Positions 1 through 43,997 of a DNA stretch of 50,759 nucleotides are shown here, piece by piece (position 1 is the stretch's first letter; each line of letters starts with the position of its first letter). Location of the stretch: the sequence record OR896827.1. One strand, 5' to 3'. Both the position numbers and the translations under genes were made by a program. The stretch is from Escherichia phage MikeNSara. The notes beneath the pieces are model-generated. The model saw only the letters and a list, made by a program, of their open reading frames with translations, searched no databases and was not told the DNA's origin.

Positions 1-1569
1 ATGATCATATGGGAAGATTTGACGGCGGCGCAAAAGCGAGCCATTAAAGAAATCAGTGAGCATTCATTCGAAAAGATGATCAGAATCTGGTTCCAATTAT
101 TGCAGGGGCAAAAATTCCAGAGCAACTGGCATTTTAGCTTATTGTGCAGTGAGGTAGAGAAGATCATCAATGGAGAGTCGCAGAATGTGATTTTCAACAT
201 TACGCCAGGTAGCGGTAAGACTGAGATTTTCTCGATCCACATGTCACCCTACGCGTCATTGAAAAGCCGAAAGGTGAGAAATCTTAACCTTTCGTTTAGT
301 GATGGCCTTGTCCAGCAAAACAGCAACCGGATAAAGGAGATTATTGGTTCTCCTGAGTGGCAAGAGCTATGGCCTGGTAAACTGGCAAAGGCGAGCGCTA
401 AAGATCTGATAGTCACCGAAGGCGGCAAGGTTAAATTGCAAGTTAACTCACGTTCTATTGGCGGCCAGGTAACAGGTTTGCGTGGCGGCTATATGGACGA
501 TGGTTTTACTGGTATGCTGGTTCTTGACGATCCAGACAAGCCGGATGATATGCTTTCTAAGGTCAAGCGTGAGGCGATCCACATGCGGTTAAAAAACACA
601 GTGCGATCGCGTCGAATGAAAGACACCACGCCGATTGTTATGGTGCAACAGCGACTACACGTTAATGATTCCACCTGGTTCATGCTTAATGGCGGGATGG
701 GTGGCATTGAGTTTAAAGTTGTGAGCATTCCGGCGCTGGTTACGAAAGAATACCGCGAAACGCTTCCTGATTGGTTGAAGCCTGAATTTGATCGTGATGT
801 GCTGTCAAGTAAGCCAGTGATGATAGATGGCGTCGCTCATTATTCATTTTGGCCTGCGAAGGAAAGCGCGGAGGAGTTGCTTGCATTGCGCAATGCAGAT
901 CCTTACACGTTCGCCAGCCAATACCAACAGCAACCAATCGCGCTTGGCGGTAACGTGTTTAAAACAGAGTGGTTCCAGTATTACGGCAGCGGAGAAAAGT
1001 GCGCACTACCAAAACCGGATCGCTTTGAATACACATTTATTACTGGAGATACCGCGCAGAAGGCCGGAGAGCTTAACGACTATTCGGTTTTTTGTTATTG
1101 GGGGATGTATAAGAATCGCGTTTACTTCATTGATGGCATTCGCGGAAAGTGGGAAGCGCCGGATCTTGAATTAAATTTTATTGCCTTCGTTAACCAGTGC
1201 TGGAAGCGCAATAAGGAGTGTGGCAGCTTGCGACGTATCCACATTGAGGATAAGGCCAGCGGCACGGGTTTGATTCAGGGGGCCAAAAAGAAGATCCCGA
1301 TTGATATAAATCCCGTTCAGCGAAGCAATGACAAGGTGACGCGAGCAATGGACGCCGCGCCAGTAATGAGGGCAGGACGTGTGGCGCTGCCAGAAAATCA
1401 CCCAATGCTGCCTGAGATACTGGCAGAGGTTGCAGCATTCACTTTTGATGATTCTCATCCCCATGATGATATTGTCGATAATATAGTTGATGCTGTTAAC
1501 GTCGAAATGAATTTGGCAGATGATCCGGTAGCAAGGATGAAAAAGCTGGCAGGTCTACGCAATAAATAG
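1..1569 (+). CDS. terminase large subunit
   Basis: 522-aa ORF with P-loop (TPGSGKT) near N-terminus and nuclease-like C-terminal half; sits immediately after the terminase-small-like ORF when the window is circularised; ATG at position 1 may be the true start. Confidence 0.8.
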   Translation: MIIWEDLTAAQKRAIKEISEHSFEKMIRIWFQLLQGQKFQSNWHFSLLCSEVEKIINGESQNVIFNITPGSGKTEIFSIHMSPYASLKSRKVRNLNLSFSDGLVQQNSNRIKEIIGSPEWQELWPGKLAKASAKDLIVTEGGKVKLQVNSRSIGGQVTGLRGGYMDDGFTGMLVLDDPDKPDDMLSKVKREAIHMRLKNTVRSRRMKDTTPIVMVQQRLHVNDSTWFMLNGGMGGIEFKVVSIPALVTKEYRETLPDWLKPEFDRDVLSSKPVMIDGVAHYSFWPAKESAEELLALRNADPYTFASQYQQQPIALGGNVFKTEWFQYYGSGEKCALPKPDRFEYTFITGDTAQKAGELNDYSVFCYWGMYKNRVYFIDGIRGKWEAPDLELNFIAFVNQCWKRNKECGSLRRIHIEDKASGTGLIQGAKKKIPIDINPVQRSNDKVTRAMDAAPVMRAGRVALPENHPMLPEILAEVAAFTFDDSHPHDDIVDNIVDAVNVEMNLADDPVARMKKLAGLRNK

Positions 1570-31093: not shown

Positions 31094-31187
31094 GGATAGT
31101 TATCATGTGGCGCTTGTTTGTTCTACCGTTACCCGTTATCATCGCTGTTACAGTTATGTACCATATAGTAATGAGATAGGTAGCAGA

Positions 31188-32303
31188 ATGAAAAATGTAA
31201 AAATTACAGATGAGCAATTCAAGATCGAACGGGCGGCGGGTAAGACATATAAACAGATCGCTCAAGAGTACGGGATGAATGTGAGAAGCGTCGAGCGTCG
31301 CGCTGCGCGTCTTGCAAAACAAGGACAGGTGTCAACCATTGGAGCGCCTGGTTTTGGTGTTCATGGTGAGTCAGTAATGACAGACAAAGAAGGCAATATA
31401 ATCCTCAAGTGGACAAAAACCAGCAAGGACAAAGAGCAATTAGAAGCATTGATGCGCGCAGCAATGGAGGCGTTTAGCGAGGAAGTGCCGCGATTAGATC
31501 CAGTTCCATTGCAGGAGCGTAACTATAATGAAACGCTTTCATTGTATCCGATCTTTGACATGCACTTAGGAGCTATGGCCCATAAGCACGAATGCGGAGA
31601 AAATTGGGATACAGCTACGGCTGAGCGCGTTATGAATAACTTTATCGACTATGCTTTGATGTGCGCACCGGACAGCGAAAAGGCTGTTATCCTGATTGGT
31701 GGCGATATGCTGCATAGCGACGGCCTGGAGGCTGTGACACCTGCAAGCGGTCACGTACTTGATCAAGATAGCCGATATGCAAAATTGGTTTACGTTGCAA
31801 TCCGCGCAATGCGTCGCGCAATTAATAAAATGCTGTTAAAGCATAAACATGTTGAGGTCCAGATCGTAGAGGGCAATCACGACCAATCAGGAATGATTTG
31901 GCTACGCGCAGCAATGGCGGCAGCATATGAGAACGAGCCGCGCGTTTACGTTGATGTTTCTCCTCGCGTTGTTCACCACACGCAATACGGAAAAACTTTC
32001 CTTGCGTACCATCACGGGCACACAGTGCGCAAACCTGAGACTTTGCTAATGATGTGCGCGTCAGATTGGCGGGAGGACTTCGGAAACTCAAAAACGATGT
32101 ATGCGCACGTAGGGCACTGGCATCACCAGACAGTGACGGAAACGTCGCTTGGGATCGTGGAGGTACATAGCACCCTGGCGGCAAAAGACGCATACGCCGC
32201 GCGAGGTGGCTGGAGATCTCGACGCCGTGCGGCGGTTATCATTTACGACAAAGAGCATGGAGAAGTCGGGCGATTTGTTCACTATCCAGAAATGATGAAT
32301 TGA
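31188..32303 (+). CDS. HTH-containing calcineurin-like metallophosphoesterase
   Basis: N-terminal HTH (KTYKQIAQEYGMNVRSVERRAARLAKQG) fused to phosphoesterase motifs DMHLG, GGDMLHSD, GNHD, HHGH, GHWHH; start moved from TTG 31038 to ATG 31188. Confidence 0.6.
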   Translation: MKNVKITDEQFKIERAAGKTYKQIAQEYGMNVRSVERRAARLAKQGQVSTIGAPGFGVHGESVMTDKEGNIILKWTKTSKDKEQLEALMRAAMEAFSEEVPRLDPVPLQERNYNETLSLYPIFDMHLGAMAHKHECGENWDTATAERVMNNFIDYALMCAPDSEKAVILIGGDMLHSDGLEAVTPASGHVLDQDSRYAKLVYVAIRAMRRAINKMLLKHKHVEVQIVEGNHDQSGMIWLRAAMAAAYENEPRVYVDVSPRVVHHTQYGKTFLAYHHGHTVRKPETLLMMCASDWREDFGNSKTMYAHVGHWHHQTVTETSLGIVEVHSTLAAKDAYAARGGWRSRRRAAVIIYDKEHGEVGRFVHYPEMMN

Positions 32304-32350
32304 TGAATTTTTATTTAAATCAATGACAAATTAAATCAAAAACTTGCAAA

Positions 32351-32378
32351 GGGGCGGCGTTTGTCGCCTCTTTTTTTT
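32351..32378 (+). terminator. intrinsic terminator before lysis cassette
   Basis: GC-rich hairpin followed by T8. Confidence 0.6.
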
Positions 32379-32448
32379 GTTTAATTTTTTACCATGTGCG
32401 TTTATCATGCGGTCAATATATTGACTTTAATTAATATGGAGAATAAAA

Positions 32449-32664
32449 ATGAAAGATTTTATTAACGCAGCTACCGCCGGATCTGGCGGTTCATCTATCG
32501 CAAGCGCCGCTACAGGGCAGTTAACCATTGCTATTGCCAGTTTTGTTTTAATGGCTGCATTCGGTGCGTGGGGCGCTTACCTTCGCTGGCGTGATAGTAA
32601 AAAATTCCACGAGGCGATCGAAAAAGGTGATATTCAAAAAGCTATTGAGATCAGGGGCAAGTAA
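32449..32664 (+). CDS. holin (pinholin-like, two TMDs)
   Basis: 71 aa; weakly hydrophobic G/A/S-rich TMD1, hydrophobic TMD2, charged C-terminus; immediately upstream of SAR endolysin. Confidence 0.7.
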
Positions 32665-33155
32665 TGAGCATAAAGAACAGGGTAGCGGCGGCGGCCTTTG
32701 GCGTTGCGGTTGCCTTGACTTCTCCACTTCTTGAAGAGATCGAAGGGGTAAGATACAAGCCATACAAAGATATTGCGGGAGTATGGACGGTTTGCGCAGG
32801 AATCACCGGACCAGATGTTATCCTGGGGAAAACGTACACTAAAAAAGAGTGTGATGATTTGTTGGCTAAGCATATCCATGTTGCTAAAAAGGAAGTTGAC
32901 AAGCAGGTTAAGGTTGACATTCCTGATAGTATGCGTGCAGCAATGTACTCATTCACTTATAATGCAGGCGTGGGAGCTTTCAGAAATTCAACAATGCTGA
33001 AACTCATCAACCAGGGGAAATTAAACGAGGCTTGCGATCAGCTTTATCGTTGGACGTATTACCATAACCCCAAAACAGGAAGGCGCGAGAAGTCTAAAGG
33101 CTTACTTAACAGGCGCAAGGTCGAATACAAATATTGCACAATGGATCTGAAATGA
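32664..33155 (+). CDS. SAR endolysin (GH24 lysozyme, phage 21 R / P1 Lyz type)
   Basis: N-terminal Ala/Gly-rich signal-anchor-release segment then [23 protein letters not shown] (E-D-T catalytic triad) and [10 protein letters not shown]; close resemblance to phage 21 R recalled from memory. Confidence 0.85.
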
Positions 33156-33547
33156 TGAGGAAATTTTTACTTACACCAATCGCAATGGCGGTGATCTTGT
33201 CTGGATGTTCAAGCGTTACGCCACTGACCGGATTAATCGGCAGTAAGCCGGAAATCACAGCACAGGCTGGCGCGGAGAACGTGAGGCAGGCAGTTGGCAT
33301 TACAGCAAAGCAGGACGCCAGCACAAAACAGAAAACCACAATAAAGGAATCTGCGGTTGACAAGGTGGACACGTCCAGCAAGAAGCATTTCACAACATCA
33401 ACCATTCAGGCCAATACCATCAAGGCAGACAAAATTCAGGTCGTGCAGGGTAATAACGGCAGATGGTACGATCCAATAATCATATGCGTGGTTGTGTTAA
33501 TTGTGCTGATTTGTCTTTACTGGAGAGAAAAGAAAAAGGAGGCTTAA
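33152..33547 (+). CDS. unimolecular spanin (u-spanin, T1 gp11-like)
   Basis: N-terminal lipoprotein signal with lipobox LSGC plus C-terminal transmembrane helix ([16 protein letters not shown]) and basic tail; overlaps endolysin stop (ATGATG); last lysis gene. Confidence 0.7.
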
Positions 33548-33564
33548 TGCCTCCTTTATTTTTA
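33530..33564. terminator. bidirectional terminator between spanin gene and convergent leftward early operon
   Basis: AGGAGGC-TTAAT-GCCTCCT with A-rich upstream and T-rich downstream flanks; overlaps spanin stop. Confidence 0.7.
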
Positions 33565-33786
33565 TGCGTCGGGCCACATATGAGTTTCGTTTGTTGGCTT
33601 GTTCGATTCGTCGTACCGCCTTACTTCAATGCTGCAAGTGTCGCCGTACATTTCTGCAATCTTGCGCTCATTTTCAACCGCCGATTGCTCACTCCATCCA
33701 AAATCCCTGTCGTAAATTGTCGGTATTTCAGCAGAAGATCCGTTGTCATGATTATATACGCGAACTACTAAAAACTTGCTGGACAT
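33562..33786 (-). CDS. hypothetical protein
   Basis: Minus-strand ORF ~35 nt downstream of motif-type promoter 33823..33866. Confidence 0.5.
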   Translation of the reverse strand: MSSKFLVVRVYNHDNGSSAEIPTIYDRDFGWSEQSAVENERKIAEMYGDTCSIEVRRYDESNKPTNETHMWPDA

Positions 33787-33822: not shown

Positions 33823-33866
33823 AATATACCCGACACTAGGCCGGGCGTTTTAACAAAAAATGCTAT
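33823..33866 (-). promoter_or_regulatory. motif-type promoter cassette (leftward)
   Basis: 20-mer 33847..33866 (one A/G change), 18-bp spacer identical to that of 30606..30649 cassette, -10 TATATT; gene ATG 33786 downstream. Confidence 0.55.
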
Positions 33867-34057
33867 TCCATACGCTTTACCGTAACCAGTAATACACCAT
33901 CATCATTGCATAAAACATGTTCAGTGGTGCTAAAAGCGCGCATATCTGAATAAAGTAGCGTAAGTAAAGCATGAATAAAATCCTCATGTGATATTGAATT
34001 TACGGCGCAGTGCTTCAAGATCTTGTCTATTAGCTTTTGCCTGGAACAATTCATCAT
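33863..34057 (-). CDS. hypothetical protein (uncertain)
   Basis: ORF whose stop is the TAG inside the 20-bp motif, as for other genes; GGGAG upstream of ATG; overlaps 3' end of 33984..34379 by 74 nt. Confidence 0.3.
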   Translation of the reverse strand: MMNCSRQKLIDKILKHCAVNSISHEDFIHALLTLLYSDMRAFSTTEHVLCNDDGVLLVTVKRME

Positions 34058-34379
34058 CGCCCATCTCCCCTATTCTCGCCATATCCCTGATCCAGTCGTT
34101 GCGCATACCATCCAGGCTATACAATTCGAATCCGAAAGGCCGCTTTGATGATCCTTTGGACCAGTATTTTCCGCAGACCCCATCTATATAACCAGCCGTC
34201 ATCATTCTTGCGCAAAATTCCTTAGATGCAAGGCTGGCGAACATTCGCGGCGTAAGTCCGGCGGCCCGCGCGAGCCGCTCGCATTCTCTATGCTGATAGA
34301 TAAATTTGGCTATGTGCTGCCTGTTAAACCAGTCGTATGACTCACACCATTTATACAGATCAAGCAAAAACATAATCAT
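33984..34379 (-). CDS. hypothetical protein
   Basis: ATGA overlap with upstream ATPase gene stop. Confidence 0.5.
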   Translation of the reverse strand: MIMFLLDLYKWCESYDWFNRQHIAKFIYQHRECERLARAAGLTPRMFASLASKEFCARMMTAGYIDGVCGKYWSKGSSKRPFGFELYSLDGMRNDWIRDMARIGEMGDDELFQAKANRQDLEALRRKFNIT

Positions 34380-41763: not shown

Positions 41764-42032
41764 AAAAGGCATTAATCAGTGTTTTGGTGGCAATGGCATT
41801 CCTGACCGGATGTAAAGAAGATGGCGCGCATGTTGGCAATGTGCAGATGGCTAACCCTGGCGATGACTACAACGTAAGGGAGCTATTCACCGCTGACGGA
41901 TGCACTGTTTACCGATTCTATGACGATCGCACTGTTTACTTTACCAACTGCAAGGGCGCGACTAGCTGGGAAGCATCGAAAAGCAATGGCAAAGGCACGA
42001 CAACAGAATATATGACCGTAGAAACAAAATAG
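41760..42032 (+). CDS. putative lipoprotein
   Basis: ATGA overlap; signal peptide with lipobox LTGC (MKKALISVLVAMAFLTGC). Confidence 0.55.
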   Translation: MKKALISVLVAMAFLTGCKEDGAHVGNVQMANPGDDYNVRELFTADGCTVYRFYDDRTVYFTNCKGATSWEASKSNGKGTTTEYMTVETK

Positions 42033-42072
42033 CACTTTTTGTTAAAACGCCAGGCGCAAAGCCTGGCATAAT
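42029..42072 (+). promoter_or_regulatory. motif-type promoter cassette
   Basis: Canonical 20-mer overlapping stop of 41760..42032, palindromic 18-bp spacer, CATAAT. Confidence 0.55.
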
Positions 42073-42104
42073 AGCCTCATCGAAACGAGATTGAGGAAAC
42101 AAAA

Positions 42105-42290
42105 ATGGCACGTCGCATCACCAAAGACCTTAAAGTCCTGAACAAAGAAAACGTAGTTAAAATCCTGGTTATCTGGGGCTACAACGAAGAAACAGCAAAG
42201 CAGAAGGTAGAGGCAGGTTATGATCTGGCTGTAAAAGCAATGCCAAACGACGACGCCAAAGGCATTGCAAACTATGTAGCGTTCTTTTAA
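42105..42290 (+). CDS. hypothetical protein
   Basis: RBS GAGGAA; downstream of motif promoter 42029..42072. Confidence 0.5.
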   Translation: MARRITKDLKVLNKENVVKILVIWGYNEETAKQKVEAGYDLAVKAMPNDDAKGIANYVAFF

Positions 42291-42305
42291 TTAGCAGGTG
42301 AATAA

Positions 42306-42491
42306 ATGAAAACGAAATTAGCCCATAAATCAGAAATCAAGATCGGCGATACTGTGATTCACAACGGCGAGCTTAGAACGGTTGGCAAAGAGTCAATAAG
42401 CCACGATGAATTTATGGGGATCTTGTTGTTCGGTGACTCTTATCGTCTTGGTTACAAGATGGTTGAGCTTGTGGAAGAGGTAAAATTCTAA
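42306..42491 (+). CDS. hypothetical protein
   Basis: RBS AGGTGA. Confidence 0.5.
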   Translation: MKTKLAHKSEIKIGDTVIHNGELRTVGKESISHDEFMGILLFGDSYRLGYKMVELVEEVKF

Positions 42492-42535
42492 ATAGCACTT
42501 TTTGTTAAAACTCGAAAACGATAACCAGGCATAAT
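42492..42535 (+). promoter_or_regulatory. motif-type promoter cassette
   Basis: Canonical 20-mer, 18-bp spacer, CATAAT; gene 42590 downstream. Confidence 0.55.
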
Positions 42536-42589
42536 AAATCACATAGGGCGGCACGGCGTCGCCCACAAAACCAATCAGGAGAAAGCACC

Positions 42590-43480
42590 ATGTTAAAACT
42601 TACTGACATTAAATTCCCGATCACCTTCGAATCTCGCGGCGTTGGTCATTTCATGTTTACAGACGAGAAGACATGCACTAAGTTTAACGAATACGGAAGT
42701 CCAAACGCTTCAACAATGGAGATTGAACACTTCATTGAAGCGCACAATAAACACTACAACTCACTCAGAGACTACGGTTACGCAATGCCAGGCTACACCT
42801 GTTTCCACTACAAGCCATATAAAGGCCAGGTGTTGCCAGTGCGCTCACCGGAACGCGCAGAGATTCCGATGGTCAATATGAAAACCTGCGACTACAAAAA
42901 GCTGTGGTGCTTAAGTGTGGACAATATCAAGTATCCGATCACGTTCCACACGACTGGTAAGTCAACGATTCGCTACACATCACGCGACAATGGCGTTTAT
43001 AGCGATGGTACGAAATCAGAGTTGAAAGTTGATTTCTTTGTCAACGGTCACAACAAATTCAATCCGCACAACGAAGAGGATAAAGTGTACTACGTGGAAG
43101 ACATTACAAAACACTTGTTTGGAGAAACTCCATTCGGCGGCGGAAAGACGTCAATTCAAAAAATCATTGGCGAGGAGATCCACAAAGCGGCTGCCGAAAT
43201 GAAAGCGCCTGGAGGCTGGCGTATTGATAAGAGCGCCTTTGCAAATCAAGAAATCGTAACGCAGGGCGCGATTGAAGATATGCCAGTTGCAGCCACGCTA
43301 AAAGGAGTCCGGCTTGATGATGGTGTGTGGTTTGAATTAACGGCTACACCAAAGACGATCGAGATTCATGATGATGTTGTTATCCTCCTGCTTCACTACG
43401 GCGGCACTAAAAATCGGACTGTTGCAGGTGAGATCAGCATCAAGCGCGGAACGATGGTTAAGTGGAAGGTAAAGATTTGA
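42590..43480 (+). CDS. hypothetical protein with internal tandem duplication
   Basis: RBS AGGAG; two ~55-aa modules share IK(F/Y)PITF ... F(I/V).(A/G)HNK pattern. Confidence 0.55.
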   Translation: MLKLTDIKFPITFESRGVGHFMFTDEKTCTKFNEYGSPNASTMEIEHFIEAHNKHYNSLRDYGYAMPGYTCFHYKPYKGQVLPVRSPERAEIPMVNMKTCDYKKLWCLSVDNIKYPITFHTTGKSTIRYTSRDNGVYSDGTKSELKVDFFVNGHNKFNPHNEEDKVYYVEDITKHLFGETPFGGGKTSIQKIIGEEIHKAAAEMKAPGGWRIDKSAFANQEIVTQGAIEDMPVAATLKGVRLDDGVWFELTATPKTIEIHDDVVILLLHYGGTKNRTVAGEISIKRGTMVKWKVKI

Positions 43481-43778: not shown

Positions 43779-43997
43779 ATGTACATTAAAAAGAAGATGA
43801 AATGCGTTTCCGTTAACTATGCTTGCTCTGGCATGTTCAAGCCTGGCGAAATCTATACGGCGCAAAAACTGAAATCATCAACCGGATCTTTTTACGTGAG
43901 CAATAGTAAGGGGCATCGCATGTTCCTGAACGGCGGCGAAGGCACTAAGGTTATGGCACACGCTATGGTAATGGCTGAATTTGAGGAAGTGAAATAA
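43779..43997 (+). CDS. hypothetical protein
   Basis: Start moved to ATG 43779 with RBS AAGGAG, ~30 nt after motif promoter. Confidence 0.5.
   Translation: MYIKKKMKCVSVNYACSGMFKPGEIYTAQKLKSSTGSFYVSNSKGHRMFLNGGEGTKVMAHAMVMAEFEEVK

Follow-up and report, generated by a model that had tools for sequence, protein, structure and literature searches.

A lysis cassette of phage T1 type in Escherichia phage MikeNSara: a predicted pinholin, a SAR endolysin and a unimolecular spanin

Introduction

Which route of host lysis is encoded by the compact gene cassette at positions 32449-33547 of Escherichia phage MikeNSara (OR896827.1), and is the spanin at its end a rare case? We addressed these questions by computational analysis of the whole stretch of 50,759 nucleotides, hereafter the window, following an initial annotation made from the sequence alone, which had described a pinholin-like holin, an endolysin of the signal-anchor-release (SAR) kind and a one-component spanin "of the rare T1 gp11 type". 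Our analysis indicates that the cassette is very probably a late lysis module conserved among T1-like siphophages, here of the genus Warwickvirus, acting through the pinholin/SAR-endolysin/unimolecular spanin (u-spanin) route. The cassette is already known, as near-identical versions have been deposited and annotated and the architecture was first described in T1. The class and topology of the holin are the part of this reading that has to be weighed most carefully.

Results

The cassette is the T1-type lysis module

All three open reading frames (ORFs) of the initial annotation, and every sequence string quoted there, are present on the plus strand at the coordinates in Table 1, the third product beginning with MMRKF. 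The junctions are tight: the holin stop codon and the endolysin start codon overlap in the string TAATG (32662-32666), the endolysin stop and the spanin start overlap in ATGA (33152-33155), and the three cassette genes are translationally coupled.

Phage T1 carries genes 13, 12 and 11 in the same order, with likewise overlapping junctions (NC_005833, 42878-43982), and the sizes of the products are nearly superimposable (71, 162 and 133 amino acids in T1 vs 71, 163 and 131 in the window). Homology extends through all three proteins, with 55% identity between the holin and T1 gp13 (71/71 residues aligned, 4e-29), 65% between the endolysin and gp12 (3e-79), and 44% between the spanin and gp11 (126/131 residues, 4e-36).

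The close relatives agree with this assignment. A megablast search with 32300-33700 recovered 78 phage records at a query coverage of at least 80%, the best matches to the cassette, at 98-99% nucleotide identity, being Escherichia phages Poky, tonijn, tonnikala and FritzSarasin. Each half of the window finds this Warwickvirus group again, at ~97-98% identity, and the taxonomy of FritzSarasin is given as Drexlerviridae; Tempevirinae; Warwickvirus. The window is a T1-like siphophage of this family, subfamily and genus. The cassette recurs with unchanged architecture in a third subfamily, Braunvirinae (phage vB_EcoS-12210I).

A T1-like lysis cassette was also observed in about 20 records named "Campylobacter phage", with Campylobacter jejuni as the host, including MG065681 (A139) and MG065667 (A127), at ~76-77% nucleotide identity over 94% of the MikeNSara cassette. 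This host label is odd for Drexlerviridae-like genomes and may reflect coliphage contamination or a mislabelled host.

The endolysin is predicted to be an R21-type SAR enzyme

The second gene encodes a lysozyme matching PF00959 at 1.6e-38, which we compared with a phage 21/DLP12 reference set (S21/R21, EssD/RrrD, PDB 3HDE, 3HDF, 4ZPU). Its best solved relative is R21, the lysozyme of phage 21 (PDB 3HDE, 5.5e-46), which aligns end to end over residues 2-159 with the SAR region included; a further solved relative is RrrD (4ZPU), the R21-like lysozyme of the DLP12 prophage of E. coli K-12, to which the endolysin is ~52% identical. Both features that the initial annotation had reported, the SAR segment and the E-D-T motif, were borne out. 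The catalytic residues E27-x8-D36-x5-T42 are intact and lie within residues 27-49, and the N-terminus consists of a basic MSIKNR followed by 17 Ala/Gly-rich residues (7-23) that contain neither a charge nor a cysteine. The composition of this segment is close to that of its counterpart, with a mean Kyte-Doolittle (KD) hydropathy of 2.01 and 53% Gly/Ala/Ser/Thr, vs 2.11 and 63% in RrrD.

SAR endolysins differ in their mode of activation, which is conformational in R21 and depends on a disulfide switch in P1 Lyz. Since the SAR segment has no cysteine, a disulfide switch of the P1 Lyz kind would not be available to it, and the comparison with R21 points to R21-type conformational activation.

Two differences from the reference enzymes weigh against this reading: the uncharged run comprises 17 residues vs 24 in the R21-like RrrD, and the catalytic Glu follows after a linker with 6 residues fewer than in R21 and RrrD. 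Both the short run and the short linker are found in T1 gp12 and in the Braunvirinae enzyme. A short hydrophobic stretch would equally suit an ordinary cleavable Sec signal peptide, in which case the product would be a secreted lysozyme instead of a membrane-tethered SAR endolysin, and an Ala-x-Ala motif (A15-V16-A17) does follow the basic n-region. We regard this as very unlikely. RrrD, near-identical to R21, carries a similar A-I-A motif and R21 has been shown to be uncleaved, so the motif does not discriminate between the two possibilities. Moreover, the N-terminal segment aligns with the SAR helix of R21, which is part of the active fold, and a secreted active lysozyme would lyse the cell prematurely. 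A related Drexlerviridae enzyme, from Braunvirinae, has been described as a class II SAR endolysin, with lysis that depends on Sec and is inhibited by azide (preprint, bioRxiv 10.64898/2026.09.09.750462). The preprint bears on Sec dependence, and by analogy the MikeNSara endolysin would likewise be exported by Sec.

The spanin belongs to the T1 gp11 family

The third gene product matches phrog_1804 (Rz-like spanin) at 4.3e-46, and both elements on which the initial annotation had based a one-component spanin, the LSGC lipobox and a C-terminal transmembrane stretch, are present. The putative lipoprotein signal is composed of MMRK, an 11-residue hydrophobic stretch and the lipobox with Cys19, the lipobox being identical to that of T1 gp11. 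At the other end, the uncharged stretch of residues 108-124 has a mean KD of 3.05 and is followed by REKKKEA. In the Lol pathway, an Asp at position +2 decides retention in the inner membrane. The residues at +2/+3 after Cys19 are Ser-Ser, with no Asp at +2, so that the protein has no inner-membrane retention signal, which matches sorting to the outer membrane. Cysteines occur only at position 19, where lipidation is predicted, and within the transmembrane domain (TMD), at 112 and 121, leaving the periplasmic part free of them.

To a family defined by Kongari et al. 2018 at a threshold of 40% identity or more across 40% or more of the length (PMC6139136), the spanin can be assigned by its 44% identity to T1 gp11 over 126/131 residues. 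The T1 protein complements the lysis defect of lambda RzRz1, an experiment that concerns T1 gp11 only, and nearly all T1-family u-spanins sit in cassettes with a pinholin and a SAR endolysin (PMC6139136). The periplasmic domain of the family is reported to be beta-rich, with a short helix followed by at least 4 beta elements, and not a coiled coil (PMC6139136); homology across the whole periplasmic domain suggests the same organization in the MikeNSara protein.

To look for a second, hidden spanin component, we scanned 32300-33700 in all six frames for lipoprotein genes of the embedded or overlapping kind, and only the u-spanin frame was credible. With no other credible lipoprotein gene in this interval, a two-component spanin with a hidden partner is excluded. 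The scan returned two further matches that were rejected as not credible, one in an antisense ORF and one in a short ORF in the region of the downstream terminator.

A different role for the third gene, that of an outer-membrane lipoprotein acting for example in Cor-like superinfection exclusion, is suggested by a weak PHROG match to the Cor superinfection exclusion protein (3.4e-4) and by generic lipoprotein matches. We consider it highly improbable: the spanin family gives a match stronger by 42 orders of magnitude, and the homologous T1 gp11 complements experimentally. The protein also has a C-terminal TMD that Cor-type lipoproteins do not need, its gene closes the lysis cassette with an ATGA overlap, and in T1 cor is a gene of its own, located in another part of the genome.

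The product is, as judged by homology and signals, a u-spanin of the T1 gp11 family itself and no independent rare case. The initial annotation was right about the u-spanin with gp11 features, and the qualification "rare" has to be given up: the protein is homologous to T1 gp11 and its gene takes the corresponding place in the cassette of a T1-like phage, and a u-spanin is therefore to be expected here. Homologues were found by tblastn in 1091/50,697 phage records. They also occur in 43-45 kb genomes of Klebsiella phages, such as NC_047811 (KpV74) and MT090077 (CX1), at ~47-49% identity over 80% of the length, so that the u-spanin family extends beyond T1-like siphophages.

The holin is a predicted pinholin by context, and not of the S21 family

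The first gene product is matched by phrog_2877 (holin) at 3.8e-32 over positions 1-71/71. All of its homologues carry PF27028.1 in precomputed annotation, and our scan with NCBIfam and a copy of Pfam lacking PF27028 returned only a sub-threshold match to DUF3262 (18.9 bits vs a cutoff of 27). The family is narrow: a word-indexed search gave 26 close homologues, and an exhaustive profile search of 1.84 billion proteins gave only 8 clusters at 50% identity. No distant relatives with a clearer two-helix layout were found among these, and all 8 clusters share one architecture.

This architecture is built around a single uncharged run of 42 residues (4-45). Only residues 25-45 have clear transmembrane hydropathy (KD 1.83, summed Hessa value ~+0.6). 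The preceding residues 4-23 are 80% Gly/Ala/Ser/Thr, with a KD of 0.65 and a Hessa value of +8.6. Positions A8, T9, G14, A20 and Q24 are invariant among close homologues, and a FGAWGAY motif at the end of the TMD is conserved.

T1-like lysis modules have been described as combining a pinholin, a SAR endolysin and a u-spanin (PMC13164509, PMC11447400, PMC4319613, PMC6139136). Published genome papers predict a class II pinholin in T1-like phages, and in three papers the prediction is either of two helices or of a pinholin. The MikeNSara holin gene adjoins the SAR endolysin gene, with overlapping stop and start codons, a pairing that is characteristic of pinholins, and its uncharged run is long enough for a hairpin. 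In addition, TMD1 of EssD, the S21-like holin of the DLP12 prophage of E. coli K-12, is equally weak in hydropathy (KD 0.70, Hessa +7.7), the TMD1 of S21 being the characterised one. Low hydropathy is therefore compatible with a SAR-type helix in the MikeNSara holin as well.

Several observations weigh against a pinholin of this kind. A comparison of the holin family profile with EssD by hhalign gave a probability of 0.2% (E = 0.27), and no relationship to the S21 type was found. The dual-start motif is missing, as the ATG found upstream, at 32436, lies in another frame and no further Met occurs before M35, and there is no polar or charged loop between putative helices 1 and 2. AlphaFold2 models the holin as one continuous helix spanning residues 2-58, at a mean pLDDT (predicted local distance difference test) of 68, and of ~54 over the N-terminal segment; the model is of low confidence and ignores the membrane. 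The RefSeq record of T1 (NC_005833) notes a single transmembrane domain for gp13, and our literature search found no experimental study of a T1-type holin.

The missing similarity to EssD, the missing loop, the single modelled helix and the T1 record, together with a hydropathy that is clearly transmembrane in residues 25-45 only, speak for a rival topology, in which the holin would be a single-pass protein with its N-terminus out and its C-terminus in, the N-terminal 23 residues residing in the periplasm from the start and serving oligomerisation or regulation, and not forming a releasable membrane helix. The conservation of the N-terminal segment points in the same direction: it is residue-specific and includes the polar N6, T9, T22 and Q24, as opposed to mere hydrophobicity. 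With the weakness of EssD TMD1, the length of the uncharged run, the pairing with a SAR endolysin and the published predictions on the other side, we hold this topology to be possible, if rather unlikely. A stronger version, in which T1-type holins as a class are mechanistically distinct single-pass N-out/C-in holins whose conserved periplasmic N-segment controls triggering, and not S21-like pinholins, seems to us doubtful. If true, it would make "pinholin" in the annotation of T1-like genomes a misnomer carried over by context.

Pinholins of the S21 type make small holes of ~2 nm, which depolarise the membrane and do not let a cytoplasmic endolysin through. We retain the pinholin reading, by which the holin may work like a pinholin in its context. 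The label is a prediction made from context and hydropathy only, and it matches the published prediction for T1-like phages. On sequence comparison, the holin is no member of the S21 family. The "pinholin-like" of the initial annotation thus stands as far as the Gly/Ala/Ser-rich, weakly hydrophobic first segment and the literature are concerned, and fails with regard to similarity of the S21 type; clear transmembrane hydropathy is confined to one segment. The question of holin topology and class is generic to all T1-like phages, in which the gp13-type holin is routinely labelled pinholin, and not special to the window.

A proposed lysis pathway

The order of events can be proposed from characterised homologues, whereas gene structure, homology, sequence signals, terminators and junctions were seen here. 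The endolysin would be exported by the host Sec machinery and held inactive in the inner membrane by its weakly hydrophobic, uncleaved N-terminal helix. The u-spanin would receive a lipid at Cys19 and be sent to the outer membrane, its C-terminal helix remaining in the inner one, so that each molecule would cross the periplasm through the peptidoglycan mesh. Meanwhile the 71-residue holin is expected to build up in the inner membrane, to trigger at a set time and to collapse the membrane potential. Depolarisation would then free the SAR helix, upon which the lysozyme may refold as R of phage 21 does and degrade the wall. Freed from the mesh, the spanins would finally fuse or disrupt the outer membrane, leading to release of the progeny.

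Transcription units and neighbouring genes

As the initial annotation had proposed, the cassette lies between replication genes and a leftward operon, behind its own terminator (32348-32373). The hairpin of this terminator has a folding energy of -17.6 kcal/mol (z = -4.4), and 0/200 shuffled sequences fold as well. A second terminator, at 33535-33557, is stable in both orientations (-17.1 kcal/mol on the plus strand and -14.2 on the minus strand; z = -5.8 and -4.3). In the T1 record (NC_005833), terminators are annotated after the homologous exonuclease gene 16 and, matching the second one, at 43966-43988.

A point that counts against the main reading is that we found no convincing sigma-70 promoter 5' of the holin: the scan returned 3 sites vs 4.2 expected, and the sole upstream match overlaps the holin start codon. 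Because the scan is at chance level, no promoter is claimed.

Upstream of the cassette, the plus strand carries genes of DNA metabolism (a helicase, a Dam-like methylase and an exonuclease). The DNA repair exonuclease/phosphoesterase gene (31170-32303) matches phrog_704 at 7e-149, and the N-terminus of its product has weak helix-turn-helix matches (Sigma70_r4_2, 0.0018; HTH_28, 0.0065) before a weak metallophosphoesterase match, which suggests a putative DNA-binding domain fused to a nuclease. Downstream, the minus-strand operon comprises small ORFs of unknown function, a gp10 homologue and a helicase. Three small conserved minus-strand genes of unknown function, at 33562-33786 (phrog_27210), 33863-34057 (phrog_9539) and 33984-34379 (phrog_2794), end this operon where it converges on the cassette, the last of them being the T1 gp10 homologue.

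The window begins exactly at the ATG of a 522-residue ORF (1-1569), the large terminase by synteny with relatives. Its length of 50,759 bp matches that of the full genomes of relatives, and the window thus looks like a whole genome, rotated so that terL comes first. No tRNA genes were found in the window by ARAGORN.

Table 1. Coordinates of the lysis cassette of MikeNSara, its predicted protein segments and flanking signals
Feature	Nucleotides	Residues	Strand	Basis or comment
Intrinsic terminator ending the upstream exonuclease/replication unit	32348..32373		+	75 bp before the holin start; 11-pair stem, then T-run
Shine-Dalgarno-like GGAGA	32438..32442		+	6 nt 5' of the holin ATG; read from sequence, putative function
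Holin, T1 gp13 family	32449..32664	71 aa	+	phrog_2877, T1 gp13 homology, hydropathy, family alignments
Holin N-terminal Gly/Ala/Ser/Thr-rich segment, conserved	32458-32517	4-23	+	
Holin predicted transmembrane helix	32521-32583	25-45	+	Followed by charged C-terminal tail
R21-type (class II) SAR endolysin, GH24 lysozyme (predicted)	32664..33155	163 aa	+	PF00959, PDB 3HDE, T1 gp12 homology
Endolysin SAR segment	32682-32732	7-23	+	
Endolysin catalytic motif E27-x8-D36-x5-T42	32742-32789	27-42	+	
Unimolecular spanin, T1 gp11 family (predicted)	33152..33547	131 aa	+	phrog_1804, T1 gp11 homology, lipobox, cysteine positions
Spanin lipoprotein signal with lipobox LSGC	33152-33208	1-19	+	Cys19 = 33206-33208
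Spanin periplasmic domain		20-107	+	
Spanin C-terminal inner-membrane helix	33473-33523	108-124	+	
Bidirectional intrinsic terminator	33535..33557		both	Common to the cassette (+) and the leftward operon converging on it (-); overlaps with the stop codon of the spanin gene

Discussion

The significance of these findings goes little beyond correct annotation, since the locus is the textbook T1 lysis module, near-unchanged in dozens of Warwickvirus genomes. Its relation to known lysis systems can be described at increasing proximity.

Like Rz/Rz1 of phage lambda, the predicted spanin would serve to connect the inner membrane with the outer. The lambda system consists of two components, whereas the spanin of the window is a single polypeptide, with neither an embedded or overlapping lipoprotein gene nor a periplasmic cysteine. 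Phage 21 and the DLP12 prophage are closer: their endolysins agree with that of the window in the catalytic triad and in a SAR helix free of cysteine, and are preceded, as in the window, by a small holin of 71 residues. However, that holin is unrelated in sequence to the MikeNSara holin, which has neither a dual start nor a loop between helices, and the spanin of phage 21 and DLP12 is of the two-component Rz/Rz1 kind where the window uses a u-spanin.

The resemblance to T1 extends beyond the three genes. Both genomes have the exonuclease gene upstream, the convergent gp10/helicase operon downstream and a terminator at the spanin stop codon, the flanking homologues being 56% (exonuclease) and 53% (gp10) identical between the two. 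They differ in that T1 alone carries, between the exonuclease gene and the holin (42028-42759), genes for the HNH endonuclease gp15 and for gp14, an SH3-like protein with DUF7244 that matches PF23896 at 8.8e-29. The corresponding interval of the window is a 145-bp spacer (32304-32448) with the terminator only, and tblastn found no homologue of gp15 or gp14 anywhere in the window (E > 1). According to a recent proposal, the DUF7244 protein is an accessory part of the lysis module that occurs widely, though not universally, in Drexlerviridae (PMC13164509).

The nearest counterparts are the Warwickvirus phages themselves, in which the same three genes have already been labelled holin, endolysin and u-spanin or Rz-like spanin. 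In FritzSarasin they are annotated as holin, endolysin and u-spanin, the u-spanin gene being near-identical to that of MikeNSara. The phages of this group differ in the cassette by point changes only, and the spanin of the window is 96.9% identical to that of its best relative.

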